Origin: an uncultured Thermotogaceae bacterium
GTDB lineage: Bacteria; Thermotogota; Thermotogae; Petrotogales; Petrotogaceae
DNA length: 54,307 bases
Assembly (NCBI GenBank): GCA_964478535.1
Contig: CAYZNB010000001.1
Location: 1-54,307, forward strand
Reading direction: 5' to 3'
The translations under genes and the position numbers were made by a program. The notes below the pieces were generated by a model that ran no database searches, was not told where the DNA came from, and worked only from the letters and a program-made list of their open reading frames with translations. Positions 5,981-26,614 of the stretch are shown piece after piece. How positions within the stretch are numbered: position 1 is the first letter of the stretch; each line of letters opens with the position of its first letter.

Positions 5981-6671
5981 TAAAATAATCGAATTAAAAA
6001 AAATAAATAAATCTTATGGAAAGTATGTAAAAACGCAAGTTTTATTTGATTTAGAGCTTGAATTTGAAAAAGGAAGTTTTAATTCTATAATCGGTCAATC
6101 AGGAAGCGGAAAATCTACGCTTTTAAATATTTTAGGAACATTAGATAAACCAACAAGCGGAGATGTTATTATTTCAGGAATAAATACAAAAAATATGAGT
6201 AATAATCAGCTTGCAGAACTTAGAAATAAAACTATGGGCTTTGTGTTTCAATTTCATTATTTATTACCAGAATTTACAGCCTATGAAAATGTAATTACCC
6301 CTTATATTATGAACAATAAAAAGGTTAATTCTGAAATTGCTGATAGAGCAAAAGAATTGATGGAATTAATGGGACTTGAAAAAGTTAAAAATAACCTTGC
6401 CGGAAGAATGTCTGGAGGGCAACAGCAGAGAACCGCAATCGCAAGAGCGTTAATAAACAACCCAGAAATAATATTAGCAGATGAACCAACTGGTAATCTT
6501 GATTCAGATACTTCTGAAACTACTTTTGAATTGATGAGAACGATAAATGAAAAATATAACACAACTTTTGTTATTATTACTCATGATAGAAGAATTGCAG
6601 ATAAAACAGACAGGATAATAGAAATAAAAGATGGAAAAATCAACCTTGATATGAAAAATGTTTTTAAATAA
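5973..6671 (+). CDS. ABC transporter ATP-binding protein (LolD/MacB-type)
   Basis: Walker A 'GQSGSGKST', signature 'MSGGQQQR', Walker B 'ILADEPTGNLD', H-loop 'ITHD'. Overlaps the permease gene by 8 nt. Confidence 0.9.
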   Translation: MVDKIIELKKINKSYGKYVKTQVLFDLELEFEKGSFNSIIGQSGSGKSTLLNILGTLDKPTSGDVIISGINTKNMSNNQLAELRNKTMGFVFQFHYLLPEFTAYENVITPYIMNNKKVNSEIADRAKELMELMGLEKVKNNLAGRMSGGQQQRTAIARALINNPEIILADEPTGNLDSDTSETTFELMRTINEKYNTTFVIITHDRRIADKTDRIIEIKDGKINLDMKNVFK

Positions 6672-6698
6672 AAAAAAGAGCGAATGCTCTTTTTTTTA
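6669..6698. terminator. bidirectional rho-independent terminator
   Basis: AAAAAAAAGAGC-GAAT-GCTCTTTTTTTT hairpin flanked by A and T runs, between convergent genes. Confidence 0.55.
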
Positions 6699-7037
6699 TT
6701 TTCTTTTTATTTTTAAGAATTTTTTTGTATTGAAAAAGAAATTGTAAATTCCAAATACAAAACAAGACATCATAGTCATAACGATCCAAAACATTTGCAC
6801 ATCAACTACACCAAAAATCCCAGAACCTCTTACAAAAGTTAAAACGATCGCTAAAAGCCATTGCTTAGTTATTAAAGCAATAAGTACAGGAGCCGCAATT
6901 AAAATAGGTATGTTGAAAACCAATGTGAATAATAACAAAAATCCAACACCTACAATCCAAGAAGCAATAACAAAAACCATTCTTTTATCTAAACCCTCTT
7001 GAACCAAACCAACTTTTTTTTCTTCTTTTTGTGCCAA
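6696..7037 (-). CDS. small integral membrane protein, unknown function
   Basis: 113 aa with three predicted hydrophobic helices. No recognisable motif. Confidence 0.55.
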   Translation of the reverse strand: MAQKEEKKVGLVQEGLDKRMVFVIASWIVGVGFLLLFTLVFNIPILIAAPVLIALITKQWLLAIVLTFVRGSGIFGVVDVQMFWIVMTMMSCFVFGIYNFFFNTKKFLKIKRK

Positions 7038-7132: not shown

Positions 7133-8971
7133 TTAAGATTCATCATCATCACTGATTCTAAGCAACGCTAAAAAGGCCTCTTGAGGAATATTTACATTTC
7201 CAATTTCTCTAAGTTTTTTCTTTCCTTCTTTTTGCTTTTCAAGAAGTTTCATTTTTCTTGTAATATCTCCGCCATAACATTTCGCAAGAACATCTTTTCT
7301 AAATGCTCTAATAGTGGAACGTGCAATTATCTTACCACCAGAATAAGCTTGAATAGGAATTTCAAATTGATGTTTTGGAATAAGATCTCCAAGTTTATCT
7401 ACAACTTTTCTTGAAATATCATAAGCCTTTGATTCATGTGCAATAAAAGATAAAGCATCAACGGTTTCTTTGTTAATTAAAACATTTACTTTTATAAGAT
7501 CAGATTTTCTATACTCAAGAAAATCATAATCCATCGAAGCATAACCTCTACTTAAAGCTTTCATTTTATCAAAAAAATCAAATATAATTTCTGCCATAGG
7601 AATATGAAAATGCAACACTACTCTATTTTTACCGGCGTTAGAAACAGATAAAAATTCTCCTCTTTTTTCTACTTGAGCTAAATTAATCAAATTACCCATA
7701 TAATCAGGAGGAGTAATTATATCTAACTTTGCAAAAGGTTCATGAATTTCTGCAATTCTATCCGGATCAGGAAATTCAGAAGGATTGTTTATTTCTAATT
7801 GAGACCCATTCTTTAAAGTAGCTTTATATACAACACTTGGAACAGTTAATATAACAGCTATTTCAAATTCTCTTTGAAGCCTTTCTTTTATAACATCCAT
7901 ATGTAATAATCCTAAAAATCCGCACCTAAAACCAAATCCCATAGCATTAGAATTTTCAGATATAAAAGTTAACGAATTATCATTTAATTTCAGTTTTTCT
8001 AAAGCTTTTCTTAATTCTTCATAATATTTAGCAACGCCAGGATATAATCCTGCATAAACCATAGGTTTAACATCTTTATAACCCTTTAAAGGTGTTGAAA
8101 TTGGATTCGAACTTAAAGTTACAGTATCCCCAACTTTAGCTTCACTGATATCTTTTATACCAGCAACGATATAACCAACATCACCTGCTGCAAGATTATC
8201 ACAAGGAGTCATTTCAGGTTGAAACACTCCAACTTCAATAATTTCATAATCTTTTCCAGTCGCCATAAGTCTTATTTTTGAACCTTTTTCAATTTCTCCA
8301 CTAAAAACTCTCGTATAAATAATTCCACCTTGATACTTGTCATACTTCGCATCAAAAACAAGAGCTTTTAATTGTTCATCTTTGCTACCTTTTGAACTTG
8401 GAGAAGGAACTTTTTGAATAATTTGTTCTAACAAATCTTTTACTCCAAATCCTGTTTTAGCACTTATTTTGCTTATTACATCTGTATCTATTCCAACTAA
8501 ATCATTCAATTCAAGAATAGTTTCTTCTGGATCCGCATTTTCAAGATCAACTTTATTTATAGCTCCAATTATTTCGAGGTCATTATCAAGAGCTAAAAAA
8601 GTGTTTGTTACTGTTTGTGCTTCTACTCCTTGAGAAGCATCAACAAGCAAAACAGCTCCTTCACAAGCTGCAAGACTTCTTGAAACTTCATAAGTAAAGT
8701 CAACATGACCTGGAGTATCTATTATGTTGATTTCATATTTGTTTCCATCTTCTGAATCATAATAAACTTTAACAGGATGAGATTTTATAGTAATGCCTCT
8801 TTCTCTTTCAAGATCCATAGAATCTAAATATTGTTCTTTCATCTTTCTTTCATCTACAGAATGAGTCATTTCCAAAATTCTATCTGTTAAAGTAGTTTTA
8901 CCATGATCTATATGTGCTATTATAGATATATTTCTAATTAATTCTGGATTGTACAAAAACGGCACCTCCAA
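7133..8971 (-). CDS. lepA: translation elongation factor 4 (LepA)
   Basis: GTPase motifs 'AHIDHGKTT', 'DTPGH' and 'NKVD', plus the conserved LepA C-terminal region ('GGDITRK'). Confidence 0.95.
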   Translation of the reverse strand: MEVPFLYNPELIRNISIIAHIDHGKTTLTDRILEMTHSVDERKMKEQYLDSMDLERERGITIKSHPVKVYYDSEDGNKYEINIIDTPGHVDFTYEVSRSLAACEGAVLLVDASQGVEAQTVTNTFLALDNDLEIIGAINKVDLENADPEETILELNDLVGIDTDVISKISAKTGFGVKDLLEQIIQKVPSPSSKGSKDEQLKALVFDAKYDKYQGGIIYTRVFSGEIEKGSKIRLMATGKDYEIIEVGVFQPEMTPCDNLAAGDVGYIVAGIKDISEAKVGDTVTLSSNPISTPLKGYKDVKPMVYAGLYPGVAKYYEELRKALEKLKLNDNSLTFISENSNAMGFGFRCGFLGLLHMDVIKERLQREFEIAVILTVPSVVYKATLKNGSQLEINNPSEFPDPDRIAEIHEPFAKLDIITPPDYMGNLINLAQVEKRGEFLSVSNAGKNRVVLHFHIPMAEIIFDFFDKMKALSRGYASMDYDFLEYRKSDLIKVNVLINKETVDALSFIAHESKAYDISRKVVDKLGDLIPKHQFEIPIQAYSGGKIIARSTIRAFRKDVLAKCYGGDITRKMKLLEKQKEGKKKLREIGNVNIPQEAFLALLRISDDDES

Positions 8972-9080
8972 ATGTATTTTTTATCATTATAACACAAATA
9001 GTTTTAAAAAATGTATATTTAACAATAAAATTAGCAAAAAAGTTGTAAAAATAAAGAACTTGAATATTTTTTTTATACTC

Positions 9081-9212
9081 TGTCATCTCGAACGACGTTC
9101 TATGGAGGAGAGATCTGCGAATTTGTTTTTTTGTTAAAATATTTTATTTCATTAAATCATAAAATCGCAGATTTCTCCTCAAAAGTATTTCACTTTTTCG
9201 TTCGAAATGACA
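9081..9212. repeat. imperfect inverted-repeat element, copy 1
   Basis: Outer arms TGTCATCTCGAACGA / TCGTTCGAAATGACA and inner arms GGAGGAGAGATCTGCGA / TCGCAGATTTCTCCTC. The same element occurs in opposite orientation at 31406-31538. Confidence 0.8.
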
Positions 9213-9337
9213 AATACATCAAATCACATAATTTTCTAATTTTCATATCGCTCAATAATTTTTGCTCACTCTTTTTTACATATAATTAATTTTTTTTATT
9301 TTAAATTAAAAAAAATTAATAGATTATTCTCACTATT

Positions 9338-10876
9338 TTACGGAATATAAACAACATTAATCCCACGATCAATTAATGTTTGAATGTCAATCATATTTTG
9401 AGAATTCGATGAATAATTTAAATGGTTATTTCTCATATCAATATGTGTATTATTTCCAATTCCAGAATTATTTATTAAAGGAGTTAAATCGTTTATTCTA
9501 TTATTATTTATTGCTAAACTTCTTAGATTGATCATTCCTTCTAAAGCAGAAATATCTGTTATTTGATTAAAACATATATTTAGCCAAAGCATATTAGTTA
9601 AATTTTCTAAATCTTTGATGTTTGTTACTTTGTTACCTGCGATAGATAATCCTATTAATTTTTTTAGATCTTTTAAGGGAGAAATATCGCTTATCTGATT
9701 GTTATAAATTTCTATTCTTTTTAAATTAATTAAATTTTTTAAAGGCGTAATATCAGTTATTTGATTATTATAAATCTCTAATATTTCTAAGTTTTCAAAA
9801 TATTGTAATCCTTGAATAGACTTTATATTTTTTTCGCTCAAATCAAGATTTTCTAAATAATAAATATCTGAAATCATAATAGTTCCAAAAGGTTTTCCAA
9901 TTAATTTTCTGATAGCTTTTAATAAGTTTTCATCTTCAAAAGCATTTGTTATGTCATAATCAATTTTTAAATCTTGCGGTATGTCTCTTTGTGGAGTATA
10001 AACAATATTAAATCCACGATCAATTAATGTTTGAATATCGTTCATATTTCGAGAATTTTCAGAAAGATTTAAATAATTATTCCTCATATCAATATTAGTA
10101 TTATTTTCAAATCCAGAATTATTTATTAAAGGAGTTATATCAAATATATAATTATACGGAAAATAAATAGTATTTAAATTAATTAGATATTCTAAAACAG
10201 ATATGTCATTAACCAAGTTATTCCAAAAAGATAATTCTCTTAATTTCAATAATTTTTTTAAAGGGTTTATATCGGTTATTTTATTAGACGAAAAATATAA
10301 TATTTCTAAATTTATTAACTCTGATAAAGATGAAATATCACTCACTTGATTAAAAGGAAAATATAAAATTTTTAATTCAGTTAAATTTTTTAAAACAGAA
10401 ATATCGCTTATTCCATTAACAGAAATTTCTAAAGTTTGCAATTCTTTTAATTCTGATAAAGATGAAATATCAGTTACTTGATTATTAGTAAAAAAAAGCC
10501 ATTTTAAATCAGTTAAATTTTTTAAAACAGAAATATCACTCACTTGATTATTTCTAAAATCCAACATTTGCAAATTTTCAAAATGTTGCAAGCCTTCGAT
10601 AGACTTGATATTTTTCCCACTAATATCTAACCTTTCAATAAAAATAACATCCGATTTCAAAATAGGTTCTTCTGATTTTTCAACAATTTCTCTTATATAA
10701 TTCAATAAATTAATATCTTCAAATGTATTTGTTATATCGCAGATATTATTTTGATCGCTTGAAATGGTATTTTTTATTTTTAATTTATTTGAATTTTTAG
10801 AACCACTATATCCTGTAAATATAAATATTAACATAAGAAAAAATAAGATATTTTTTATCTTACTCAATTTTATCAC
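9338..10876 (-). CDS. secreted leucine-rich-repeat (internalin-like) protein with two complete LRR modules
   Basis: N-terminal hydrophobic signal-like segment and ~22-aa LxxLxxLxLxxNxIxDIxxL repeats. The N-cap, LRR and C-cap unit occurs twice. The TTG at 10867 is better placed after AGAGGTGA than the GTG at 10876. Confidence 0.8.
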   Translation of the reverse strand: MIKLSKIKNILFFLMLIFIFTGYSGSKNSNKLKIKNTISSDQNNICDITNTFEDINLLNYIREIVEKSEEPILKSDVIFIERLDISGKNIKSIEGLQHFENLQMLDFRNNQVSDISVLKNLTDLKWLFFTNNQVTDISSLSELKELQTLEISVNGISDISVLKNLTELKILYFPFNQVSDISSLSELINLEILYFSSNKITDINPLKKLLKLRELSFWNNLVNDISVLEYLINLNTIYFPYNYIFDITPLINNSGFENNTNIDMRNNYLNLSENSRNMNDIQTLIDRGFNIVYTPQRDIPQDLKIDYDITNAFEDENLLKAIRKLIGKPFGTIMISDIYYLENLDLSEKNIKSIQGLQYFENLEILEIYNNQITDITPLKNLINLKRIEIYNNQISDISPLKDLKKLIGLSIAGNKVTNIKDLENLTNMLWLNICFNQITDISALEGMINLRSLAINNNRINDLTPLINNSGIGNNTHIDMRNNHLNYSSNSQNMIDIQTLIDRGINVVYIP

Positions 10877-11155
10877 CTCTAATAGTAAAAAATTTTCAAG
10901 ATTTATAATGTTTTATACTATTTTACCTTAAATAAATAATTTTTTCAATTTAAATATAAAACAATATTACTTTTATTTATAATGATAAAAATGTAATTGT
11001 TGCAAAAAAGCAATTATAAGTTTATACAATTTATCTGATTTATTTAAAAAATAATCTTTTAGTGATTTTTAAGTTAATTATAAAAATAATAAAAAAAATG
11101 ATATTTATTCTTCAATGTTCCCAATGTTAATTTAAGAAAAATATTAATTTAAATA

Positions 11156-11164
11156 TGGTATAAT
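11156..11164 (+). promoter_or_regulatory. candidate extended -10 promoter (TGgTATAAT) for the GH3/radical-SAM operon
   Basis: TGnTATAAT lies 35 nt upstream of the ATG at 11199, at the end of a 320-bp AT-rich spacer. Confidence 0.35.
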
Positions 11165-11198
11165 TAAAGTAAATATTTTTTGTGCGGGGGGGATACAA

Positions 11199-11903
11199 AT
11201 GAAATTGAATGGTTTTGAAATAGATTATTTAAATCTTTCTGATTTTGAGAAGTCTCAGATGTTTAAAATTATGGAAAATCATTATGAAAATATGATTTTT
11301 GAAAAATTTTTAAAAGATCTTTCAGAAAAAGACAAAATATTTATTTTAATAGATGAAAAAGAAAATATAAAAGGTTTTACTACAATAAAATTTATGGATT
11401 TTAATATTGAAAATAAAAAAATAAAGGGTGTATTTTCAGGAGATACTATTGTAGATAAAGATGTTGGATTTGAAATTCAATTACAAAAAATGTGGGTAAA
11501 TTTTATATTTAAATATTTGAAAGCTAATCCTCAAGAAAGTTTATATTGGTTTTTAATATGTAAAGGATATAGAACTTACGGTTTTCTGCCTATGTATTTT
11601 AAAAAGTATTATCCAAATTATGAATATAATACTCCAGCTTTTGAGAAAAGTATTATGGATAATTATGCTTTTTTAAAGTACGGAAAGAATTATGATAAAA
11701 CGACTGGAATTATATATAATGATGGAAGCAATGATTATTTAAAAGATGATGTTGCACCTGTAACGGAAAGAAAACTCAAAAATCCCGTTGTAAAATTTTT
11801 TGTAGAGAAAAATCCTGGATATGTTAATGGTGATGAACTTGTTTGTCTCGCTCAATTTTCTTTTTCAAATTTTAAAGATGTTTTTGAAAGGATGTTGAGA
11901 TAA
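11199..11903 (+). CDS. hypothetical protein, first gene of GH3/radical-SAM operon (possibly a GNAT-fold acyltransferase; not established)
   Basis: 234 aa, ATG after a GGGGGGG Shine-Dalgarno. No motif I can name with confidence. Confidence 0.7.
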   Translation: MKLNGFEIDYLNLSDFEKSQMFKIMENHYENMIFEKFLKDLSEKDKIFILIDEKENIKGFTTIKFMDFNIENKKIKGVFSGDTIVDKDVGFEIQLQKMWVNFIFKYLKANPQESLYWFLICKGYRTYGFLPMYFKKYYPNYEYNTPAFEKSIMDNYAFLKYGKNYDKTTGIIYNDGSNDYLKDDVAPVTERKLKNPVVKFFVEKNPGYVNGDELVCLAQFSFSNFKDVFERMLR

Positions 11904-11906
11904 CTT

Positions 11907-13559
11907 ATGGGTTTAACAAAATTTTCAAATATGATTTGGATGAAACTTAGTAAACCTTCTTATTTAAAACATTTAAAATCAACTAAAAATGTTTCGCAAA
12001 CACAAAAAAATTTACTTTTGAAAATAATATCTGATAACAAAAATACTAAATTTGGTTTGAAATATAATTTTAAAAATATAAAAAATATAGATGATTATAA
12101 AGAAAAAGTTCCTATTTCAACATATGATGATTACAAAGAATATATAGAAAATATTTCAAATGGTGAAAAAAATATCCTTACAAAAGAAAAAATATTAATG
12201 CTTGAATTATCAAGTGGAACTACTTCATCTTCAAAATTTATCCCTTATACAAAATCTCTAAAAAAACAATTTATGAATGGCGTGGCTGCTTGGATTTATG
12301 ATATTTATAATAGTAATAATAAACTGATGAAATTAAAATCTTATTGGTCTATTTCTCCAATAACTAATGAAAAAAAATATACAAAGGGAGGAATAAGTAT
12401 AGGTTTTGAAGATGATGGTGGATATTTTGGTTTTATTGAAAATCTTTTATTTAAAAATATTTTTCCAGTTCCTGCAGAAATTAAATTTATCAAAAACATA
12501 GATAATTTTAGGTATTTAACTTTACTTTTCATGATGCGAAATAAAGATTTAGGATTAATTTCAGTATGGAACCCAACATTTTTAAGTATTTTATTGTCAC
12601 ATATCGATAAATGGAAATTTCAAATTATAAATGATATCGGCAGCGGAAAAATAACATTGCCTGTAAAAGGTGTTGAAAATAATAAAATATTAGAAAAACT
12701 AATAAAAAATAACAAAAAAAATAACAAACGTTTTTTTGATTTAAAAGATATTTTCGATAATTTCGCTAATAATTATATTGAAAAGTTATGGCCTGAATTA
12801 ACTTTAATTAGTTGTTGGACTGATGGAAACTCATCTTTTTATATTGATGAAATTAAAGTACTTTTTAAAAAAAGTGTAATTCAAGGAAAAGGTCTTCTGG
12901 CAACTGAAGGTATTGTATCTTTTCCTTTATACGAATCTGGAGGCAAGAATATTTCTGTAAATTCTCATTTTTATGAGTTTATAGAAGAAAAAACTAAAGA
13001 AATTAAAAATATAAATGAATTAGAAAAAGGGAAAATATATTCTGTTGTAATAACTACAAGTGGTGGATTGTATCGATATAATCTTCAAGATTTAGTAATT
13101 ATAGATGGTTTTTATAATCAATGTCCGCTCATAACTTTTTTAGGAAAAGAAGCAAAAAATTCTGATTACTTTGGCGAAAAATTGAATGAAGGTTTTGTTA
13201 ATCAAAAATTGAATGAATTATTTGAAAAGGAAAATATCGTTCCTTCATTTTATATGGTTTGTCCTGAAAGAGATAAAGAAAAATTTTTTTATGTTCTTTA
13301 TCTTCAAAGTAATGAAATAAAAAATTTTGGCGTAATTGCAGATGTTTTGGATTTTAAATTTAGAGAAAACTTTCATTATGATTACTGCCGGAAATTAAAT
13401 CAGATTGATAAATTAAAAATATTTCATGTGAAAGGAGATGGCAAAAAAATTTATCAAGAAAGATGTGTGAATGAAGGTCAAAAAATTGGGGATATTAAGC
13501 CAAGTATTTTGCACAATAAAATTGGCTGGAAAGATATTTTTCCTGGGAATTTTATATAA
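11907..13559 (+). CDS. GH3-family acyl-adenylate-forming (amido synthetase-like) enzyme
   Basis: 550 aa with the GH3/ANL motifs 'LELSSGTTSSSKFIPYT', 'LLATEGIVS' and 'GGLYRYNLQDLV'. Confidence 0.8.
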   Translation: MGLTKFSNMIWMKLSKPSYLKHLKSTKNVSQTQKNLLLKIISDNKNTKFGLKYNFKNIKNIDDYKEKVPISTYDDYKEYIENISNGEKNILTKEKILMLELSSGTTSSSKFIPYTKSLKKQFMNGVAAWIYDIYNSNNKLMKLKSYWSISPITNEKKYTKGGISIGFEDDGGYFGFIENLLFKNIFPVPAEIKFIKNIDNFRYLTLLFMMRNKDLGLISVWNPTFLSILLSHIDKWKFQIINDIGSGKITLPVKGVENNKILEKLIKNNKKNNKRFFDLKDIFDNFANNYIEKLWPELTLISCWTDGNSSFYIDEIKVLFKKSVIQGKGLLATEGIVSFPLYESGGKNISVNSHFYEFIEEKTKEIKNINELEKGKIYSVVITTSGGLYRYNLQDLVIIDGFYNQCPLITFLGKEAKNSDYFGEKLNEGFVNQKLNELFEKENIVPSFYMVCPERDKEKFFYVLYLQSNEIKNFGVIADVLDFKFRENFHYDYCRKLNQIDKLKIFHVKGDGKKIYQERCVNEGQKIGDIKPSILHNKIGWKDIFPGNFI

Positions 13560-13564
13560 AAGGG

Positions 13565-14899
13565 GTGAGGAATTTGAAAATAGTATTTTTATCTCCTGCA
13601 GGAGCTATGCATAGACATTCTGGAAATTTTGGGAAATCCCTTCATTATGCTCCATTAACTCTAACAACTCTTGCTGCAGGTATTGATGAAAAGTATTTGC
13701 CAGAAATAAAAATATATGATGAAACAATAGAAGAAATTCCTTTAGATATAGATGCAGATATTATTGGAATAACTACAATAACTGGAACTGCTCCAAGAAG
13801 TTATAGATATTCTGAATATTTTAGAAAAAAAGGAATACCTGTAATAATGGGCGGAACACATCCTACACTTATGCCGAACGAAGTTGCTCAATATTGTGAT
13901 AGTGTTGTTGTTGGTCAGGGAGAATTTTTATGGGATGAAATTCTTGATGATTTAAAAAATAATAATTTAAAAAAAATTTATAACGGTCATAAACCTTATG
14001 AAAAAAAATATCCAATCCCAAAAAGAGATTTGATGGATATGAAAAAATTTATAACAGGGAATTCAATAGAAGCTACAAAAGGTTGTGTGAATGATTGCTT
14101 TTTTTGTGCTGTTTATGCTGTTAACAAAGGCGTACATTATAAGCGTGAAATAAAAGATGTCATTGCAGAACTTGAAAAAATGAAAGGGAAAAATGTTATA
14201 TTTATTGATGTAAATTTAGTTGCAGATAAAGAGTATGCAAAAAATTTGTTTAAAGAAATGATTCCTTTAAAAAAATGGTGGTTTGGACTTTCTACCGCTG
14301 ATGTTATAACTGACGAAGAATTATTTAAACTTATGGTAAAAAGTGGTTGCAAAGGTTTATTAATAGGTTTTGAAGCTGTTACTGAATCTTCTTTAAACGA
14401 TATGAATAAAAATCACAATAAAAAATTAGATTATTCTTATTTGATGAAAAAAATGCATAGTAATGGTATTTCTATAAATGGAACTTTTTGTTTTGGTACA
14501 GATTCAGATAATAAAGATGTTTTTAAAAGAACTGTAGATAAAGTTCTTGAATTAAAAATTGATTTACCAAGATATTCAATAATGACGCCATTTCCCGGAA
14601 CAAAACTTTATGAGACTCTTGAATCTGAAAAAAGAATTTTTGAAAGAGATTGGTCAATGTACGATGTTCAGCACTGTGTTTTTAAACCTAAAAATATGTC
14701 TCCTAATGAGCTTGATGAAGGAAACATTTGGGCTTGGGAAGAAACTTATAAAAATTTATCTATAGCTAAAAGAATTTTAAGGTTTGATATTATGCTTCCA
14801 ATAGCTATTTTAACGAATGCAGGGTATAAAAATTATGCGAAAAAACTCAGATATTTTGATAGAAAAAGGATGACGGATAATTCTGATATTCCTTTATAA
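13565..14899 (+). CDS. B12-binding-domain radical SAM protein, paralogue 1
   Basis: N-terminal Rossmann-type B12-binding-like domain ('IIGITTITGTA...VIMGGTHPT') and 'GCVNDCFFC' CxxxCxxC motif. The likely true start is the TTG at 13574 (MKIVFLSP), 5 nt after AAGGGGTGAGG, which matches the paralogue N-termini. Confidence 0.85.
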   Translation: MRNLKIVFLSPAGAMHRHSGNFGKSLHYAPLTLTTLAAGIDEKYLPEIKIYDETIEEIPLDIDADIIGITTITGTAPRSYRYSEYFRKKGIPVIMGGTHPTLMPNEVAQYCDSVVVGQGEFLWDEILDDLKNNNLKKIYNGHKPYEKKYPIPKRDLMDMKKFITGNSIEATKGCVNDCFFCAVYAVNKGVHYKREIKDVIAELEKMKGKNVIFIDVNLVADKEYAKNLFKEMIPLKKWWFGLSTADVITDEELFKLMVKSGCKGLLIGFEAVTESSLNDMNKNHNKKLDYSYLMKKMHSNGISINGTFCFGTDSDNKDVFKRTVDKVLELKIDLPRYSIMTPFPGTKLYETLESEKRIFERDWSMYDVQHCVFKPKNMSPNELDEGNIWAWEETYKNLSIAKRILRFDIMLPIAILTNAGYKNYAKKLRYFDRKRMTDNSDIPL

Positions 14900-14915
14900 A
14901 AAGGAGTTTTATATT

Positions 14916-16250
14916 ATGAAAATAACTTTTATAAGACCAAACATGAACGACGAATTTTCAAAAGATGCAATGCAACCTTTAGCTTTTGCGGTTTTGAAAG
15001 GATTGACTCCTAAATATATTGAGACAGAACTTTTTGATGATAGAATTGAAAAAATTAATTTTGAAACAAATTCAGAAGTTATTGCAATTACCGCAGAAAC
15101 TTTCACTGTAAAAAGAGCTTATGAAATAGCTACAGAATTTAAAAAAAGAGGAAAAAAAGTTATTATGGGAGGATATCATCCAACTTTTATGCCTGAAGAA
15201 TCTTTAGAATTTTGCGATAGTGTTGTTATCGGCGAAGCAGAACCTTTATGGCAAAAAGTTATAGTTGATTTGGAAAATAATGAATTAAAAAAAATTTATA
15301 AATCTAGTGAAAATTTTGAAGTTGAAAATGTTTTTTTTGACGAAAGTATTTTTGAAGGAAAAAAATACGCTTCTGTTATTCCTGTTCAATTTTCAAGAGG
15401 CTGTAAATTTAACTGTGAATTTTGTTCTATTAGTTCTTTTTATAATAAAAAAATAAAATTTCGATGTATAAAAAATGTCGTTGAAGAAATAAAAAGAAAA
15501 AATTCAAAATATTTTTTTATAACTGATGATAATATTTTTACAAATAAAATAAAGTTGAAAGAATTTTTAAAAGAGCTGATTCCTTTAAAAATAAAATGGG
15601 GATGTCAAATAAGTATAGATATTTCAAATGATGAAGGTTTGCTCGATTTAATGGCTAAAAGTGGTTGCATATCAATTTTAATAGGTTTTGAAAGTCTAAA
15701 TCAAATCAATTTAAAGCAAATGAATAAAGATACAAATATAAAAAATTTTGATTATAACAGTAAAATAAAAAAAATAAAAGAAAGAGGTATTATGATATAT
15801 GGAACTTTTGTTTTTGGATATGATGGAGATACCGTAGAATCATTTGAAGAAACTTTAAATTTTGCAATTGAAAATAAATTTTTTCTTGCGAATTTTAATC
15901 CTTTAATACCTATGCCAGGCACTCAAATATATAATAGATTAAATTTAGAAAAAAGATTAATATATGACAAATGGTGGCTTGACGACAATTTTAAATATGG
16001 CGAAACAGTATTTTTGCCAAAAGGTATGACTCCCAAACAACTTGAAGAAGGGTGTTTTGATCTTAGAACGAGGTTTAATTCTTATTCAAGTATTTTCAAA
16101 AGAATATGGGATTTCAGAAGTAATGCAAAAAATATTCACAATTTTTTTGTTTATTTTGGCGCTAACTTAATTTCCAGAAGAGAGATTTTTAATAAACAAG
16201 GGAAAAAACTGGGGGGAGAAAATATTGAAAATAACTCTAATAAAACCTAA
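14916..16250 (+). CDS. B12-binding-domain radical SAM protein, paralogue 2
   Basis: 'MKITFIRPN' N-terminus, 'VIMGGYHPT', 'RGCKFNCEFC', and C-terminal 'DKWWLDDNFKYGETVFLPKGMTP' region. Confidence 0.85.
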   Translation: MKITFIRPNMNDEFSKDAMQPLAFAVLKGLTPKYIETELFDDRIEKINFETNSEVIAITAETFTVKRAYEIATEFKKRGKKVIMGGYHPTFMPEESLEFCDSVVIGEAEPLWQKVIVDLENNELKKIYKSSENFEVENVFFDESIFEGKKYASVIPVQFSRGCKFNCEFCSISSFYNKKIKFRCIKNVVEEIKRKNSKYFFITDDNIFTNKIKLKEFLKELIPLKIKWGCQISIDISNDEGLLDLMAKSGCISILIGFESLNQINLKQMNKDTNIKNFDYNSKIKKIKERGIMIYGTFVFGYDGDTVESFEETLNFAIENKFFLANFNPLIPMPGTQIYNRLNLEKRLIYDKWWLDDNFKYGETVFLPKGMTPKQLEEGCFDLRTRFNSYSSIFKRIWDFRSNAKNIHNFFVYFGANLISRREIFNKQGKKLGGENIENNSNKT

Positions 16251-17556
16251 TATTGGAAGAATTTTAAATGGTTCTTATGTAGATGAAGGAAGAATGCAAC
16301 CTTTACAATTGGGTATTTTAGCTGCTTTAACTCCAGAAGATATAGAGGTTGTTATGTATGATGACAGAATGGAAGAAATTCCATATGATGAAAAAACTGA
16401 TTTGGTTGCAATAACTGTAGAAACATTTACAGCAAAACGTTCTTATGAAATAAGTGCTGAATTTAAAAAAAGAAATATTCCAGTAATAATGGGCGGGATG
16501 CATGCTACTTTAATCCCTGAAGAAGTTCAAGAACATGCTGATTCTATTTTGATAGGAGATGCAGAAAATATTTGGTTTGAAATAATTGAAGATTTTAAAA
16601 ATAACCAATTAAAAAAAAGATATTTAGGAAAATTTGGCGAACCTCAAAAAAATATATTTCCTAGAAGAGAAATTTTTAATAAAAAGGGATATTTACCTAT
16701 TTCATTAATGCAATTCAGTCGAGGTTGTAGGTATAATTGTTCTTATTGTGCTTCTAGCGTTTATTTTAATAGGACAAACTATTGCAGAAATGTTGAAAAT
16801 GTTGTTAAAGAAATTCAAGATCAAAATTTAAAATTGATTTTTTTTGTTGATGATAACATTATTTCAAATAGAGAAAAATCTAAAGAACTTTTTAAAGCTT
16901 TAATCCCTTTAAAAATAAAATGGGTTAGTCAGGCGAGTATTGATATGACTGAAGATAGAGAATTAATGAAATTAATGTCAAAAAGCGGTTGTCTTGGCAA
17001 TGTTATTGGTTTTGAATCTTTAGAAATTAATAATTTGAAATCTATGGGGAAATTACATAATATAAAAGAAAACAAAAAACCTTATTACGAACAAATTCAA
17101 ATATTGAGAGATTACGGCCAGCAAACTTGGGCTGCTTTTACTTTAGGACATGAATTTGATACTATTGAATCTATTGAAAAAATTGAAGAATTTTCTATAG
17201 AAAATAAATTTGCTTTTGCTGCTTTTAATGTACTTCTTCCTTATCCTAACACTCAATTTTTTAATAAACTTTTAAATGAAAACAGATTGTTGTATGACGG
17301 TAAGTGGTGGCTTCATGATGATTATAGATTTAATAATGCCGCATTTTCACCTAAAAACATTACTCCCGAACAACTTTCTGAAGCTGCCTTTAAAGCGAGA
17401 AAAAAATTTAATTCTATTTTTTCAATTTTCAAGAGATCTTTAGATTTAAAAACACATATGAGAAATCCAATAAGATTTTTAATTTATCTTCAATATAATC
17501 CCTTAATTAGAAAAGAAGTATTTAAAAAACAAGGGATGATTTTTGGCAAAAACTAA
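16225..17556 (+). CDS. B12-binding-domain radical SAM protein, paralogue 3
   Basis: TTG start after GGGGGGAG gives 'MKITLIKPN'. Also 'VIMGGMHAT', 'RGCRYNCSYC' and 'GKWWLHDDYRF'. Overlaps paralogue 2 by 26 nt. Confidence 0.85.
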   Translation: MKITLIKPNIGRILNGSYVDEGRMQPLQLGILAALTPEDIEVVMYDDRMEEIPYDEKTDLVAITVETFTAKRSYEISAEFKKRNIPVIMGGMHATLIPEEVQEHADSILIGDAENIWFEIIEDFKNNQLKKRYLGKFGEPQKNIFPRREIFNKKGYLPISLMQFSRGCRYNCSYCASSVYFNRTNYCRNVENVVKEIQDQNLKLIFFVDDNIISNREKSKELFKALIPLKIKWVSQASIDMTEDRELMKLMSKSGCLGNVIGFESLEINNLKSMGKLHNIKENKKPYYEQIQILRDYGQQTWAAFTLGHEFDTIESIEKIEEFSIENKFAFAAFNVLLPYPNTQFFNKLLNENRLLYDGKWWLHDDYRFNNAAFSPKNITPEQLSEAAFKARKKFNSIFSIFKRSLDLKTHMRNPIRFLIYLQYNPLIRKEVFKKQGMIFGKN

Positions 17557-17574
17557 TAATGAGGGGATGATTTT

Positions 17575-18912
17575 GTGAAAATAACTTTTATTTTACCCGC
17601 AATAGGAAAGAAAAAAGATGAAAAATATATTAAAACATGGAAAAAAATGGAACCTTTAGTGATAAGCACTTTAAAAAGTATCACACCTAAAGATATAGAA
17701 ACAGAATTTTTTGATGATAGACTTGAATTGATTAATTACGATACTAATACTGATCTTGTTATGATATCTGTTGAAATGTATACTTCTAGAAGAGCTTATA
17801 TAATAGCAGAAAAATTTAGGAATAAAAATGTAAAAGTTATGATGGGTGGATATCACGTTACTTTAATGTCTGATGAAGTTGTAGAACATGCAGATTCTAT
17901 TTTGATAGGAAATGCTGAAAAAATATGGACTGAAGTTATAAATGATCTGAAAAATAATTCTCTTAAAAAGAAATATTATGGTAATTTTGGATTTGAGAGA
18001 GGTATTCCCGATAGAAGTATATTTAAAGAAAAAAAGTATTCTCCGATAGGCCTTGTTGAAACTGGTAGAGGGTGTATATTTCATTGCGAATTTTGTGCAA
18101 TTACCGCATGTTATTCTGGAAAATACCATAAAAGAAATATTGAAGATATAGTAGAAGATATAAAGTCTTCAGGTAAAAAATATTTCTTTTTTGTTGATGA
18201 TAACATTGTTGCTGATCAAAATTATACTATAGAACTTTTAAAAGCTATAGAACCTTTAAACATAAGATGGTCTGCACAAGGTTCTCTCACAATGGCAAAA
18301 AATGATGAGCTTTTATCTTTAATGAAAAAAAGTGGATGTGATGTTATTTTAATAGGATACGAATCAGTAAACAGAAAAAACTTAGAACAAATGAAAAAAG
18401 ATTGGTCATTATCTCTTGGAGAAAGAGATACATTAACCGAAAAAATCCATAGTTATGGAATAAATATATATGCAACATTTGTTTTTGGATTTGATTATGA
18501 TGATGATGAAACTTTTGAAGAAACACTAAGGTTTGCTTTTAAACACAATTTTTTCTTTGCTGCTTTCAATCACTTACTTCCTTTTCCTGGAACAGAATTA
18601 CACGAAAGGTTCGTAAAAGAAAATAGACTTTTAAAAGATAAATGGTGGCTTGATGAAAATTATTCTTACGGCGATATTCCATATAAACCGAAAAATATGA
18701 CGGCAGAAGAATTATCTGAAAAATGTGCTGATGCGAGAAGAAAATTTTTTACTTATTCATCAATATTTAAAAGATTTTCAAAATTACTTTTTAGAAAATC
18801 AGATTTAATGCTATGGCTTATATTTTTGACACAAAATATTAATTTAAAAAAAGAAGTAGATGGCAAATTAAGATTACCTTTAGGAAGTGGTTTGGATGAA
18901 AATCCTAAATGA
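17575..18912 (+). CDS. B12-binding-domain radical SAM protein, paralogue 4
   Basis: GTG start after GAGGGGA gives 'MKITFILPA'. Also 'VMMGGYHVT', 'RGCIFHCEFC' and 'DKWWLDENYSYGDIPYKPKNMT'. Confidence 0.85.
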   Translation: MKITFILPAIGKKKDEKYIKTWKKMEPLVISTLKSITPKDIETEFFDDRLELINYDTNTDLVMISVEMYTSRRAYIIAEKFRNKNVKVMMGGYHVTLMSDEVVEHADSILIGNAEKIWTEVINDLKNNSLKKKYYGNFGFERGIPDRSIFKEKKYSPIGLVETGRGCIFHCEFCAITACYSGKYHKRNIEDIVEDIKSSGKKYFFFVDDNIVADQNYTIELLKAIEPLNIRWSAQGSLTMAKNDELLSLMKKSGCDVILIGYESVNRKNLEQMKKDWSLSLGERDTLTEKIHSYGINIYATFVFGFDYDDDETFEETLRFAFKHNFFFAAFNHLLPFPGTELHERFVKENRLLKDKWWLDENYSYGDIPYKPKNMTAEELSEKCADARRKFFTYSSIFKRFSKLLFRKSDLMLWLIFLTQNINLKKEVDGKLRLPLGSGLDENPK

Positions 18913-19993
18913 TAGATATGTTTTTGATTTTGCAATAAAAGAAGATAATGAACAAATTTTGAAAATTCTTGAAGAGAATGATTTTACTGGTAAAATTTCT
19001 ATATTGTATACTAGACGACCTGATGCTTATAGTTCTTTTATGGCAGAGGGAAAAGAAGTTTTATTTATCACTTGTAAAGATATAAAAAATCATAATGCAA
19101 TTGTGGGATTTGGAGCATGTTCTATTAATGAATGTTTTGTTAACGGCGAAAAACAAGAAGTAGGATATTTATTTGGATTGAGAAGTTCAAAAGAATATTT
19201 AAAAAAAATAAATTTTTTACATCATTCTTATGATTATTTAAAAGAAATACTTGAAAATAGGAATATAAAATATTTTTATACTACAATACTTGAAGAAAAT
19301 TATGCCGCAAGAAAATTGTTAGAAAAAGAAAGAAAATATATGCCAAAGTATGAATATGTTTGTGATTATATAGTTTATTCAGTTAAAACTAAGCAAAAAG
19401 TAAAACAAAATGAATATGATTTAATCAATTGTACGGATAAAGATATAAATGACATATTAATTTTTTATCATAAAAATGGGAAAAAGTTGAATTTCTTTCC
19501 CTTAATAGATGTAGAAATAATAAAAAAAATAGGGATAAATAATTTTTATTTTTTAAAAGATAAAGAAAAAAAAATATTGTGTTGTGGAGCAGTGTGGGAT
19601 CAAAAAAATTATAAACAACATATAATAAAAAATTATTCTAAAATTTTTAAATATGTACAATTTTTTTCATTTTTATTTCCATTATTTGGATATCCTTCAT
19701 TGCCAAAAATTGATAACATATTAAATTACTATACAATTTCATATTTTTGTGTTGAAAATAATGATCCGGATTTATTTCAATTATTTATTAAAGAAATTTC
19801 TAAAAAATATTCTGAATATTCCTTTTTTATAACGGGGTTATCTGATCAAAATTTTTTAAATAAATCATTTGAAAAAATACCAAAAATTAATTATAAAAGT
19901 AGAATTTATCTTGTTAATTGGGAGAAAAAAGAAAATATTAAAGAAACACTTGATAAAAATTATCCTATTTATCTTGAATGCGGTATGTTGTAA
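18887..19993 (+). CDS. hypothetical protein, last gene of GH3/radical-SAM operon (possible tandem GNAT-like fold; not established)
   Basis: 368 aa. The ATG at 18896 (MKILNDRY) is the more likely start. Overlaps the upstream gene and is followed directly by a strong terminator. Confidence 0.65.
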   Translation: MVWMKILNDRYVFDFAIKEDNEQILKILEENDFTGKISILYTRRPDAYSSFMAEGKEVLFITCKDIKNHNAIVGFGACSINECFVNGEKQEVGYLFGLRSSKEYLKKINFLHHSYDYLKEILENRNIKYFYTTILEENYAARKLLEKERKYMPKYEYVCDYIVYSVKTKQKVKQNEYDLINCTDKDINDILIFYHKNGKKLNFFPLIDVEIIKKIGINNFYFLKDKEKKILCCGAVWDQKNYKQHIIKNYSKIFKYVQFFSFLFPLFGYPSLPKIDNILNYYTISYFCVENNDPDLFQLFIKEISKKYSEYSFFITGLSDQNFLNKSFEKIPKINYKSRIYLVNWEKKENIKETLDKNYPIYLECGML

Positions 19994-20025
19994 AAAAAGA
20001 GAAGTCATTCGACTTCTCTTTTTTA
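19992..20025. terminator. bidirectional rho-independent terminator
   Basis: AGAGAAGTC-ATTC-GACTTCTCT 9-bp stem flanked by an A run and a T run, between the convergent operon end and rplT. Confidence 0.8.
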
Positions 20026-21785: not shown

Positions 21786-22634
21786 TTATACACGAATTCT
21801 GCGTTCCATTTCCCATTGACTTAAAAATTCTTCGTACCCAATACTTTTTGCGGCTTTATTTAGAGGGTCGTCTTCAGGAACACCTACTATGATTACATTA
21901 CTTTTTGAAAGTGCTATTCTTTCAGTAACTTCTGTTAATATTTCCTTAAATTTAGTATTATCTGCGATCGGCGCGGCATCCAAAATAAATCCATTATGCT
22001 CATTTGATCCCCAAACAGCATAACCAACCGTAAAACCTCCTGAAAGAATTCTCTCAATCGTATATCTATCTTCACTTAAAAGGAGAGTGGAAGGTTCTCT
22101 TTGCCAATTAAGATTTCTTTTTAAGTTCATTTTTGCGGTAAAAGCGATATCATGAACCCAACGACAATCTTCTTGAACAAATTTAAGTCGATTTTCTTCT
22201 GGGTTAGGCCACGTGACTTTCAAAGATTCAAGTTTTCTTTTAAGTTTGAAACCATGTTTTTCATAAAATCTTATTGCTCTTTTTTCACCTTCTGCAACTT
22301 CTAAAACAATTTTTTCTATCCCTTTCCATTTTAAAGATTCTAAACATCTAAAAAGTATTTCGGAAGCTAATCCTGTGCCCCTTAATTCTTTAATAACACC
22401 AAAAGAATCAATTCTTGCTTTCTTTTCTCTCAAAGAAACTAAACAAAAACCTACTGGAGAACCATTTTGATAAACTAAAAAACTTTCATTTTCTGAAATA
22501 GAGTTTTCTCTGACATCAAGCTCAAATTCTTGAATGGTCCAATTTACAGGCACTACGTAATCTAAAAAAATTTCATTTACAAGATTTAGAAGGGTAACAA
22601 CAGAATCTTGGGATAATTTTTTATATTCTATCAT
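21786..22634 (-). CDS. GNAT-family N-acetyltransferase
   Basis: GNAT motif A region 'VIKELRGTGLASEILFRCLE...RAIRFYEKHGF'. The start is set to the ATG at 22634 (MIEYKK) behind GGGGAGGTGGG. The longer ORF-track version would run into tRNA-Leu. Confidence 0.8.
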   Translation of the reverse strand: MIEYKKLSQDSVVTLLNLVNEIFLDYVVPVNWTIQEFELDVRENSISENESFLVYQNGSPVGFCLVSLREKKARIDSFGVIKELRGTGLASEILFRCLESLKWKGIEKIVLEVAEGEKRAIRFYEKHGFKLKRKLESLKVTWPNPEENRLKFVQEDCRWVHDIAFTAKMNLKRNLNWQREPSTLLLSEDRYTIERILSGGFTVGYAVWGSNEHNGFILDAAPIADNTKFKEILTEVTERIALSKSNVIIVGVPEDDPLNKAAKSIGYEEFLSQWEMERRIRV

Positions 22635-22687
22635 TTTTCCCACCTCCCCACTACAATTATACAATAAAATTATTAAAATTAAACAAA

Positions 22688-22719
22688 AAAAAAGAATCGG
22701 AATAATCCAATTCTTTTTT
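22688..22719 (-). terminator. rho-independent terminator after tRNA-Leu
   Basis: On the minus strand: AGAATTGG-ATTATT-CCGATTCT hairpin followed by a T run. Confidence 0.6.
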
Positions 22720-22807
22720 TGGTGCCGGGGGCGGGACTTGAACCCGCACGAGAGCAATTCTCATATGGCCCTCAACCATACGTGTCTACCAGTTCCACCA
22801 CCCCGGC
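22720..22807 (-). tRNA. tRNA-Leu (anticodon GAG), long variable arm, CCA encoded
   Basis: Acceptor GCCGGGG/CCCCGGC, anticodon stem TATGG/CCATA with loop TTGAGGG, variable arm GAGAATTGCTCTC, T arm GCGGG-TTCAAGT-CCCGC. Confidence 0.85.
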
Positions 22808-25942: not shown

Positions 25943-26614
25943 ATGACATTTAACGATATCTTTAAATCTAGTTTTTTAGAAAGAGTAGCTAGTTTTTCTG
26001 TGTTAGATACAATTATAGCACTGTTATTAGCTTTTATATTAGGTCTTTTTATATTTTTTGTATACAAAAAAACTTTCAGTGGCGTTATTTATTCATCAAA
26101 CTTTGGGATTTCACTTATTTCTATGGCGATGATTACAGCTATGATTATTTTGGCTATAAGTTCAAATGTTATATTATCCCTTGGTATGGTAGGAGCTTTA
26201 TCAATTGTACGTTTTAGAACAGCCGTAAAAGATCCTATGGATATATCATATTTATTTTGGGCTATTTCCATTGGAATTGTTGTTGGAGCCGGAATGATTC
26301 CTTTAGCTGTATTTGGAACAGTTTTAATTGGGATTGTTTTAATGGTTTTTGCAAACAAAAAATCAATAAATACTCCTTATTTGATAATTATTAACTGTAA
26401 TAATGAAGAATCAGAGAAAAACGTTTTGAATATTATTTGCAAAAATGTAAAAAAGCAAATTCTTAAATCCAAAACGGTTTCTAAAGAAGGTATAGAAATA
26501 ACTTTTGAAATAAGATTAAATCAAACGACAACAGAATTTGTTAATCAAATTTTATTAATAAATGGAGTCAGTAATGCAATACTTGTTAGCTATAATGGAG
26601 AATATTCATCATGA
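25943..26614 (+). CDS. DUF4956-like membrane protein
   Basis: 223 aa with four hydrophobic helices and 'LSIVRFRTAVKDPMDISYLFWAI'. Sits in the position usual for the VTC/DUF4956/CotH trio. Confidence 0.6.
   Translation: MTFNDIFKSSFLERVASFSVLDTIIALLLAFILGLFIFFVYKKTFSGVIYSSNFGISLISMAMITAMIILAISSNVILSLGMVGALSIVRFRTAVKDPMDISYLFWAISIGIVVGAGMIPLAVFGTVLIGIVLMVFANKKSINTPYLIIINCNNEESEKNVLNIICKNVKKQILKSKTVSKEGIEITFEIRLNQTTTEFVNQILLINGVSNAILVSYNGEYSS

Follow-up and report, generated by a model that had tools for sequence, protein, structure and literature searches.

Which product is made by seven genes that bring together a GH3-family acyl-acid amido synthetase, two proteins of GNAT-like fold and four radical S-adenosylmethionine (rSAM) enzymes with B12-binding domains, and is this grouping peculiar to one genome? 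The genes lie on the plus strand at 11199-19993 of a 54,307-nt stretch of DNA (the window) from an uncultured Thermotogaceae bacterium, and a first-pass annotation, made from the letters of the DNA, had described them as an "orphan" operon. This description does not hold, as the linkage of GH3 with rSAM genes is kept across many phyla: the GH3-rSAM-acyltransferase cluster is not an orphan but widespread, and it is very probably a conserved small-molecule biosynthetic operon. The seven open reading frames (ORFs), whose positions agree with those claimed earlier, are as follows.

11199-11903, plus strand: ORF1, predicted GNAT-fold acyltransferase with a C-terminal extension, 234 amino acids (aa) (AlphaFold 2 model, Foldseek)
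11907-13559, plus strand: GH3-family acyl-acid amido synthetase, 550 aa (Pfam and PDB matches)
13565-14899, plus strand: rS1, B12-binding-domain rSAM enzyme of the core "rS1-type" clade (Pfam, CVNDCFFC)
14916-16250, plus strand: rS2, B12-binding-domain rSAM enzyme, first gene of the accessory rS2-rS3 pair (Pfam, CKFNCEFC)
16225-17556, plus strand: rS3, B12-binding-domain rSAM enzyme, second gene of the accessory pair (Pfam, CRYNCSYC)
17575-18912, plus strand: rS4, B12-domain rSAM enzyme, core "rS4-type" partner of ORF7 (Pfam, CIFHCEFC)
18896-19993, plus strand: ORF7, predicted tandem-GNAT acyltransferase, 365 aa from the ATG at 18896; the ORF opens at a GTG at 18887 (AlphaFold 2 model, Foldseek)

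A scan of one genome per GTDB species yielded 47 loci encoding GH3 relatives, in which partner genes were typed by tblastn with the seven window proteins and by independent ORF clustering, with agreement between the two. Among the 38 loci with a GH3 at least 32% identical to that of the window, ORF1 is present in 33, ORF7 in 32 and B12-domain rSAM genes in 35, so that the co-occurrence of GH3 homologues with rSAM genes, which the first-pass annotation had named as a check on its reading, is found in most of these genomes. Short contigs or contig ends account for the missing partners, with the exception of a Udaeobacter locus (L022), which has no rSAM gene, and of L017, which has an rS4-ORF7 fusion. 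All genes of these loci are co-directional, save one rSAM gene in L024, and GH3s of 31% identity or less (Melainabacteria, Sericytochromatia, Granulosicoccaceae, Bacteroidia) are accompanied by none of the partner genes. Since the gene set recurs in about 35 unrelated genomes, its grouping is not due to chance. The linkage spans at least 10 phyla, and was found in Clostridia and other Bacillota, Anaerolineales and other Chloroflexota, Acidobacteriota, Verrucomicrobiota (Udaeobacter), Planctomycetota (Sedimentisphaerales), Elusimicrobiota, Desulfobulbaceae, Bacteroidales, Fusobacterium, Synergistaceae and a metagenome-assembled genome (MAG) assigned to a lineage of the candidate phyla radiation (CPR; L045); the clade occurs mostly in Bacillota and Chloroflexota, the other, mostly anaerobic, phyla being represented by single or few loci. 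Copies of the window cluster with 100% identical proteins are present on several metagenome contigs.

Comparison of the loci reveals a conserved core of five genes, ORF1-GH3 plus rS1-rS4-ORF7, which is organised in two modules, one of ORF1 and GH3 and the other of an rS1-type gene, an rS4-type gene and ORF7, that occur in either order. ORF1 is directly upstream of GH3 in most loci and adjoins it in 33, and the gene directly upstream of ORF7 in most loci is of the rS2/3/4 clade with rS4 as its best match. The rS2-rS3 genes are an accessory pair, always adjacent, that recurs in seven other GTDB loci (L010, L011, L014, L027, L028, L029 and L038); L054 and L055 have four rSAM genes each, not typed by clade. 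The suggestion of "up to four radical steps" thus does not describe the system as a whole, as the core comprises a single enzyme each of the rS1 and rS4 types, and rSAM copies range from 0 to 6 per cluster in other genomes. The five-gene core is found in Anaerotalea alkaliphila (L031), and the complete seven-gene layout of the window is shared by Peptoclostridium litorale DSM 5388 and Acidaminobacter sp. JC074, both of them cultured.

The coupling between rS4 and ORF7 is further indicated by a natural fusion. The 817-aa protein P0251 consists of an rS4-type rSAM enzyme (residues 3-438, 42% identical to rS4) followed by an ORF7-type domain with the canonical C-terminus (residues 454-817); it was recovered on two independent contigs, and its cluster also contains ORF1-like, GH3 and further rSAM genes. 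Such Rosetta-stone evidence suggests that rS4 and ORF7 act together. The 841-aa rS4-ORF7 ORF of L017 was set aside, as this MAG shows an aberrant C-terminus and split genes that suggest frameshift errors.

What the core could catalyse is best approached through its GH3 enzyme. The Pfam GH3 N, M and C domains, for which the cut-off is 23.6 bits, score 195.6, 66.9 and 30.4 (E 1.5e-57, 1.7e-18 and 7e-07), and the translation carries SSGTTSSSKFIPYT, ATEG and YRYNLQDLV, which correspond to the family motifs SSGTT..K..P, (Y/A)xxE(G) and YR.x.D; the nucleotide-binding motifs align with the corresponding motifs of GH3.12, and the domain assignment and motifs given earlier are therefore sound. Judged by this family membership, the enzyme is predicted to adenylate a carboxylate and to ligate it to an amine. 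The closest solved structures are plant GH3.12/PBS3 and JAR1 (E 1e-16), and the plant GH3s as a group (GH3.12/PBS3, JAR1, GH3.5/6; E 1e-16 to 1e-12) share with it the three-domain fold family and the nucleotide-binding motifs, whereas the identity is low, the acid/amine specificity is not transferable, and the plant enzymes act alone on hormones and not in an operon with rSAM genes. The sole NCBIfam match is to OlsH (equivalog model NF052613), and with 66.6 bits against a cut-off of 620, and a best stretch limited to residues 22-120, the enzyme was rejected as an OlsH orthologue. OlsH is the sole characterised bacterial GH3; it uses ATP to couple ornithine with a free fatty acid, which gives N-acyl ornithine (PMC12493201). 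The OlsH/OlsI pathway of Singulisphaera acidiphila (PMC12493201) resembles the window cluster in its bacterial GH3, its ATP-driven formation of a carboxylate-amino acid amide and its operon with acyl-transfer enzymes; it differs in that the window cluster lacks the OlsI alpha/beta-hydrolase and the OlsG methyltransferase, while the Ols system lacks the GNAT-fold pair and the B12-domain rSAM partners of window-type clusters. An OlsI alpha/beta-hydrolase O-acyltransferase is absent from the window unit and also from the gene families recurrent across the 47 loci. The two GH3 clades also differ in distribution, as about 90% of OlsH BLAST matches are in Bacteroidota, the remainder being chiefly in Pseudomonadota and Planctomycetota (PMC12493201), in contrast to the mostly Bacillota and Chloroflexota clade of the window GH3.

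ORF7 and ORF1, in which no nameable motif had been recognised before, can both be assigned at the fold level. For ORF7, the AlphaFold 2 model from an alignment of 41 homologues (predicted local distance difference test, pLDDT, 94.1; predicted template modelling score, pTM, 0.90) is a tandem GNAT, and its top Foldseek matches are N-myristoyltransferases (NMTs) over the full length (E 1.7e-13, template modelling score 0.57-0.63, about 380-440 aligned columns). The protein ends in ...LEC(G)xL-COOH, with the same end residue in 41 of 41 aligned homologues and a terminal Leu in 126 of 139 further representatives of the family. NMT uses its C-terminal carboxylate as the catalytic base, and the conservation of the C-terminal end is what suggests, by analogy, a similar mechanism for ORF7 with its own terminal carboxylate as base. 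Eukaryotic NMT and the ORF7 model have in common the tandem-GNAT architecture over the full length, and both proteins have a strictly conserved C-terminal residue, whereas ORF7 is bacterial, is about 365 aa long, is part of a biosynthetic operon and has no detectable sequence relationship with NMT; it probably acts on a small amine and not on a protein N-terminus. At the sequence level, Pfam gives sub-threshold GNAT matches for the family, a few weak matches to Gly_acyl_tr_C, which is an acyl-CoA:amino-acid N-acyltransferase domain, and an NMT match in 1 of 41 members at E 0.1; the window ORF7 matches neither Pfam NMT nor NMT_C. A search of the PDB with the ORF7-family profile found no NMT at E <= 10, and a sequence-level link to NMT was rejected accordingly. 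The family is large: clustered at 50% identity, it has 3,454 representatives at E <= 1e-3, and at E <= 1e-30 there are still 1,344.

For ORF1, the model from an alignment of 58 homologues (pLDDT 94.5) shows a single GNAT core with an extension, which in Foldseek comes closest to Eis-like GNATs and AAC(2')-Ia (E about 1e-5); in all, 147 PDB entries match it at E <= 0.001, the listed ones being GNATs. Pfam GNAT models match ORF1 at sub-threshold level only, and a profile search of the PDB gave no sequence link to any solved protein. The modelled fold therefore points to a GNAT-fold acyltransferase, of which there are at least 356 homologues. A paralogous relationship of ORF1 with one half of ORF7 was considered and rejected (hhalign probability only 23%).

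The four remaining genes are B12-domain rSAM enzymes, as had been assigned: all score 45-60 bits against Pfam Radical_SAM (cut-off 29.5) and all have the CxxxCxxC motif in the variants listed above. Against the B12-binding model (PF02310, cut-off 32.1), rS1 (42.6) and rS2 (38.5) are above and rS3 (31.9) and rS4 (27.5) below the threshold; rS3 and rS4 align with rS1 and rS2 over the full length despite their sub-threshold scores. rS3 starts at a TTG with a 26-nt overlap with rS2, and its N-terminus MKITLIKPN parallels those of rS2 and rS4. The paralogues rS2-rS4 are 42-46% identical to one another and 33-34% identical to rS1, and the C-terminal region "KWWLD...PK.M(T/S)P..L", which had been put forward as common to all four, is exact in rS2-rS4 only, rS1 having the looser RDWSMYD...PKNMSPNEL. 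A match to DUF4070, also suggested earlier as worth seeking, was not found in the cluster proteins at E <= 0.01 in the Pfam scan. The rSAM genes of the loci belong to two main clades, of which the rS1-type is present in 32 loci and the rS2/3/4-type in 33; both clades are new and specific to this cluster. The best NCBIfam family matches reach E 1e-20 to 1e-36, and identity with a named equivalog (BchE, HpnJ, HpnR, PhpK, TIGR04072, AprD4 or MgmA/TIGR04014) was rejected for all four, as scores are far below the cut-offs: the top equivalog score, for BchE, is 125 bits against 481, and the others are lower relative to their own cut-offs. The enzymes share with the class B rSAM proteins (BchE, HpnJ, HpnR, PhpK, the TIGR04072 "ladderane-cluster" protein, AprD4, MgmA) the N-terminal Rossmann-like B12-binding domain and the CxxxCxxC core, and differ from them in that rS1-rS4 fall far under every equivalog cut-off and have their nearest PDB entry only at E 1e-7 (AprD4 for rS1), with MgmA (PDB 9ccb) as the nearest entry for rS4 at E 4e-8.

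Because GH3 enzymes and tandem GNATs are catalysts of amide formation and acyl transfer, we propose, tentatively and with somewhat less than an even chance, that the cluster directs the assembly, independent of the ribosome and of any non-ribosomal peptide synthetase (NRPS), of an N-acyl amino-acid or N-acyl amine amphiphile of the lipoamino acid or lipo-dipeptide type, which is then tailored by rSAM enzymes. Both NMT and GLYAT-type tandem GNATs transfer acyl groups from acyl-coenzyme A (acyl-CoA) to an alpha-amine. As regards the substrates, the order of steps, the kind of radical reaction and the lipophilic character of the product, we infer the following. ORF7 would move an acyl chain from an acyl thioester, of CoA or of an acyl carrier protein (ACP), onto the free amine of an amino acid or other amine, with its conserved C-terminal carboxylate serving as base as in NMT. 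GH3 would use ATP to adenylate a carboxylate and join it to an amino acid or amine, the acid being a free fatty acid, which is what OlsH uses, or else the product of the ORF7 step, an N-acyl amino acid, and ORF1, which would be translationally coupled to GH3, may add or supply a further acyl group. The rS1-type and rS4-type enzymes would then introduce functional groups at unactivated carbons, in the acyl chain or in the side chain, rS4 possibly working in physical proximity to ORF7, by C-methylation, O2-independent oxidation or C-C bond formation, and rS2 and rS3 might contribute extra tailoring specific to the lineage. A lipo-dipeptide-type product is chemically plausible, since aminolipids with dipeptide or tripeptide headgroups are known (PMC12971839). 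The earlier inference of a small molecule or a membrane-lipid modification is reasonable.

Several points weigh against the N-acyl amphiphile. An ACP, an acyl-CoA ligase, a fatty-acid gene, a flippase and an exporter are all absent from the core; among PDB entries GH3 matches the aryl-acid ligase GH3.12 best, with a negligible margin over JAR1; the likeness of the ORF7 model to NMT is at the level of the fold only, and other tandem GNATs use acetyl-CoA. Cobalamin binding by rS1-rS4 is a prediction from their domains, and the nearest solved relative of rS1, AprD4, reportedly does not use cobalamin. The presence of the full cluster in a CPR bacterium (L045) would, if the binning is correct, be odd for lipid-tail chemistry. 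Finally, the hint that rSAM genes are swapped for O2-dependent enzymes in aerobes comes from a single locus, L022 of Udaeobacter (7595-17286): it has ORF1-GH3-ORF7 and no rSAM gene within 10 kb, carries five O2-dependent enzymes instead, and encodes on its flanks three Rieske oxygenases and one protein each of the AurF-like di-iron, FA_desaturase-family and SnoaL types.

The accessory genes of other loci bear on the nature of the substrate in two ways. Loci of likely aerobic lineages add an AurF-like di-iron protein, an integral-membrane FA_desaturase-family protein, SnoaL-like proteins, two or three Rieske (KshA/VanA-like) oxygenases, a PAP2 phosphatase and a hexapeptide transferase, while a GT1 glycosyltransferase or SPASM-type rSAM enzymes are the additions in other loci. 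In favour of the amphiphile, the substrates of such accessory families are as a rule small and often lipophilic. The AurF-like and VanA-like enzymes would suit aromatic substrates equally well, and AurF-like proteins (of the arylamine oxygenase family), VanA_C-type Rieske proteins and SnoaL are typical of the tailoring of aromatic natural products. It is therefore conceivable, though in our view rather unlikely, that the product is a water-soluble specialised metabolite, namely a signal, siderophore-like compound or antibiotic and no lipid, in which GH3 would couple an amino acid with an aryl or short-chain acid, in the manner of PBS3/GH3.12 and JAR1, the GNATs would acetylate amines and the rSAM enzymes would C-methylate or rearrange the scaffold. 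Such a product would agree with the activity of GH3.12 as a 4-substituted-benzoate-glutamate ligase, with the aminoglycoside and small-molecule acetyltransferases that are nearest in fold to ORF1, with an rSAM number of 0-6 that recalls natural-product diversification, and with a major facilitator superfamily transporter that adjoins one cluster. It is less easily reconciled with the top structural match of ORF7, which is a long-chain acyl-CoA transferase and no acetyltransferase, with the integral-membrane FA_desaturase-family and PAP2 proteins of some clusters, with the fatty-acid substrate of OlsH, and with the lack of a conserved exporter. As a separate observation, an Anaerolineales MAG encodes inside its cluster (L013, 3096-4883) a radical SAM/SPASM protein fused to a KshA_C-like Rieske-oxygenase catalytic domain, so that modules of anaerobic and of aerobic enzymes are combined in an unusual way.

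The similarity of ORF7 to NMT, a protein N-terminal acyltransferase, and of rS4 to a protein-modifying rSAM enzyme raises the question of whether the substrate could be a macromolecule. MgmA and Mmp10 methylate side chains of methyl-coenzyme M reductase, and MgmA, the nearest solved relative of rS4, is a protein glutamine C-methyltransferase (PMC11796369). The NMT-like and GNAT proteins might accordingly acylate a protein N-terminus or lysine, GH3 might add a carboxylate to a protein amine and the rSAM enzymes might methylate side chains, the target being encoded elsewhere; no substrate-supplying gene is conserved in the cluster, the cluster is found in the MAG of a CPR lineage with reduced genomes (L045), and that of the window adjoins rplT-rpmI-infC, all of which would fit. 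We nevertheless regard this as improbable, as rS4 resembles MgmA only weakly (E 4e-8), in the way that is typical for class B rSAM enzymes of any sort, the adjacency to ribosomal genes is not kept in other loci, and the accessory membrane desaturase-family, PAP2, GT1 and SnoaL genes suggest small lipophilic substrates. In addition, we know of no GH3 that acts on proteins.

If the substrate were instead a peptide encoded in the cluster, a precursor gene should be found. A total of 437 small ORFs were collected from 36 loci (cluster plus 2 kb on either side) and none of them is conserved between lineages, in agreement with the statement in the first-pass annotation that there is no precursor-peptide ORF; a cluster for a ribosomally synthesised peptide with post-translational modifications (RiPP) was rejected for this reason. 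A lipidated RiPP, with a precursor C-methylated by B12-rSAM enzymes as in the proteusins and fatty-acylated by a tandem GNAT as in the selidamides and nostolysamides, does have precedents in the tandem GNAT NpuN, which lipidates RiPP lysines from acyl-CoA (PMC13060382), and in the B12-rSAM C-methyltransferases that act on RiPPs, and there are weak NCBIfam matches to ApyD and rSAM_ocin_1. NpuN and the selidamide enzymes are tandem GNATs of biosynthetic clusters that move long acyl chains from acyl-CoA onto an amine, much as is proposed for ORF7; their clusters are unlike that of the window, which has no precursor peptide, protease, lanthipeptide enzyme or other core enzyme. With not one small ORF (18-95 aa) conserved in those 36 loci, with no protease, RiPP recognition element domain, leader-processing gene or exporter, and with RiPP-type NCBIfam scores far under their cut-offs, such a product is extremely unlikely. 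The unit likewise contains no polyketide synthase (PKS), NRPS or exporter, as had been noted before.

The host itself invites a further explanation, since the phylum Thermotogota makes membrane-spanning diabolic-acid lipids by means of the rSAM enzyme Mss (PMC13159169), and the window rSAM enzymes show moderate NCBIfam matches to the lipid-related B12-rSAM families HpnJ, HpnR and TIGR04072. The rSAM enzymes could thus couple lipid tails into diabolic-acid membrane-spanning lipids, or methylate them, in bulk membrane-lipid tailoring to which GH3 and the GNATs are incidental. We consider this very unlikely. Across phyla the rSAM genes go together with GH3, ORF1 and ORF7, and in one lineage there is a fusion to ORF7; because of this linkage and fusion GH3 and the GNATs are not incidental neighbours. 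The cluster is rare in Thermotogota, with none of the 47 GTDB loci in this phylum, and its closest named relatives of seven-gene layout are the cultured Clostridia P. litorale and Acidaminobacter. The scores against the named lipid rSAM families are 4- to 9-fold under the cut-offs, and Mss works alone in E. coli (PMC13159169). The NCBIfam matches of the window rSAM enzymes include neither an Mss nor a Tes model. The terms "B12-binding" and "cobalamin" occur nowhere in the full text of the Mss paper (PMC13159169).

A defence function was also considered and rejected, as the PADLOC matches were confined to a generic rSAM similarity, which rS2 and rS4 show to the candidate model PDC-M51A, with nothing for GH3, ORF1 or ORF7. 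The enzymes belong to known superfamilies, and it is their combination (GH3, two GNAT-fold acyltransferases, one of them NMT-like, and two new clades of B12-rSAM enzymes) that is apparently undescribed: the 8 million papers and preprints searched contain no description of it, the literature on GH3 with radical SAM, on NMT-like bacterial enzymes and on B12-rSAM with acyl-acid amido synthetases does not describe the cluster, and the statement that this is not a described pathway thus agrees with our searches. None of the enzymes in a 2026 review of lipid-modifying rSAM proteins (Tes, Mss, Gms, GrsA/B, Gmm, Cds, HpnH/J/P/R, Jaw5 and the ladderane genes) is linked to GH3.

If the N-acyl amphiphile reading is right, the cluster would represent a compact bacterial assembly of N-acyl amino-acid type with radical tailoring and without NRPS or PKS, and would extend the newly found role of bacterial GH3 enzymes in aminolipid synthesis. 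It would also add two new clades to the poorly charted B12-domain radical SAM enzymes, and a bacterial, operon-embedded relative of NMT in fold, whose substrate is reachable by genetics. The system is abundant, with more than 1,300 diverged representatives of its signature family in at least 10 phyla and in cultured strains, and since P. litorale DSM 5388 and Acidaminobacter sp. JC074 share the seven-gene layout, the question of the product is directly testable. Here we further speculate that the five-gene core might constitute an unrecognised, widespread route to new amide-linked lipids or lipo-amino acids, remodelled by radical chemistry, in mostly anaerobic bacteria, including the first functional bacterial counterpart of NMT in complex with an rSAM enzyme. 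We regard this wider claim as doubtful; if true, such products could explain some of the unassigned nitrogen-containing or methyl-branched lipids of anoxic environments.

Whether the seven genes are expressed together can be judged from the layout of the operon and from two features at its borders.

11156-11164, plus strand: extended -10-like element TGgTATAAT (consensus match, in the AT-rich 322-bp spacer)
19993-20024, no strand assigned: perfect 14-bp hairpin between an A run and a T run (sequence reading and folding)

The junctions between the ORFs are, in order, +3, +5, +16, -26, +18 and -26 nt, so that the earlier count of seven co-directional ORFs with junctions of -26 to +18 nt is confirmed by the coordinates; the last of them, rS4/ORF7, becomes -17 nt with the ATG at 18896, which is preferred as the start of ORF7 because the gene callers and the conserved N-terminus point there. 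With genes packed this tightly between a promoter-like element and a strong hairpin, a single compact transcription unit, as proposed before, is plausible. The proposed upstream boundary stands in part. The TGgTATAAT element is present in the spacer (10877-11198), which is AT-rich and 322 bp long and has a G-rich Shine-Dalgarno sequence at 11186-11192, 3' of the element; however, matches of this type occur at chance density in DNA of 26% GC such as the window, and inside the unit 76 promoter-like sites were observed against 68.9 +/- 8.7 in shuffles, which is the chance level, so that it is the position of the element alone that argues for a promoter. Downstream, the hairpin (-17.5 kcal/mol, z = -7.3; none of 200 shuffles equally stable) is likely a bidirectional intrinsic terminator common to the operon and the convergent rplT, as the first-pass annotation had held, with a stem that is a perfect 14 bp and not 9 bp; a scan for consensus terminators missed it because its T run belongs to the stem. 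An Rfam scan of the whole window gave only four tRNAs and no riboswitch or other RNA leader. The GC content of the cluster (0.21-0.28) is in line with that of its flanks, and recent horizontal transfer, as judged by composition, was rejected.

The surroundings of the cluster provide some minor observations. The LepA protein of the window is 79-80% identical to those of Tepiditoga spiralis and a Thermotogota MAG and 73-74% identical to those of Petrotogaceae and Defluviitoga, by which the host is a member of the Thermotogota that is Petrotogaceae-like. Divergently upstream of the cluster, on the minus strand at 9338-10876, lies a gene for a 512-aa leucine-rich-repeat (LRR) lipoprotein-like protein with two similar halves, and an LRR gene occupies the same position (L058, 101-1018) in the cluster of the nearest relative, whose ORF7 is 63% identical. 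A strain variant of the same organism (L001) carries a DDE_Tnp_1 transposase at 5568-6836 between lepA and the LRR gene, which the window lacks at the matching gap (about 8972-9337). Directly upstream of an FtsX/MacB-type permease and an ATP-binding cassette ATPase, the window encodes at 4158-4811 a stand-alone 217-aa B12-binding-domain protein, which may be relevant to corrinoid handling in a host with four B12-domain rSAM enzymes. Two tandem genes for methyl-accepting chemotaxis proteins on the minus strand (43057-45000 and 45068-47434) are 100% identical over at least 300 nt at their 3' ends (43059-43358 and 45070-45369), which suggests a recent duplication or gene conversion. At 26611-28365 the window encodes a CotH-kinase-family protein (E 1e-66), of a family best known from Bacillota spore coats. 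Finally, a 323-aa GNAT (Acetyltransf_1) ORF on the minus strand (21786-22757) has a TTG start that overlaps a tRNA on the same strand (22723-22807); gene callers give a 282-aa product for this ORF, and the start of the 323-aa version is probably wrong.

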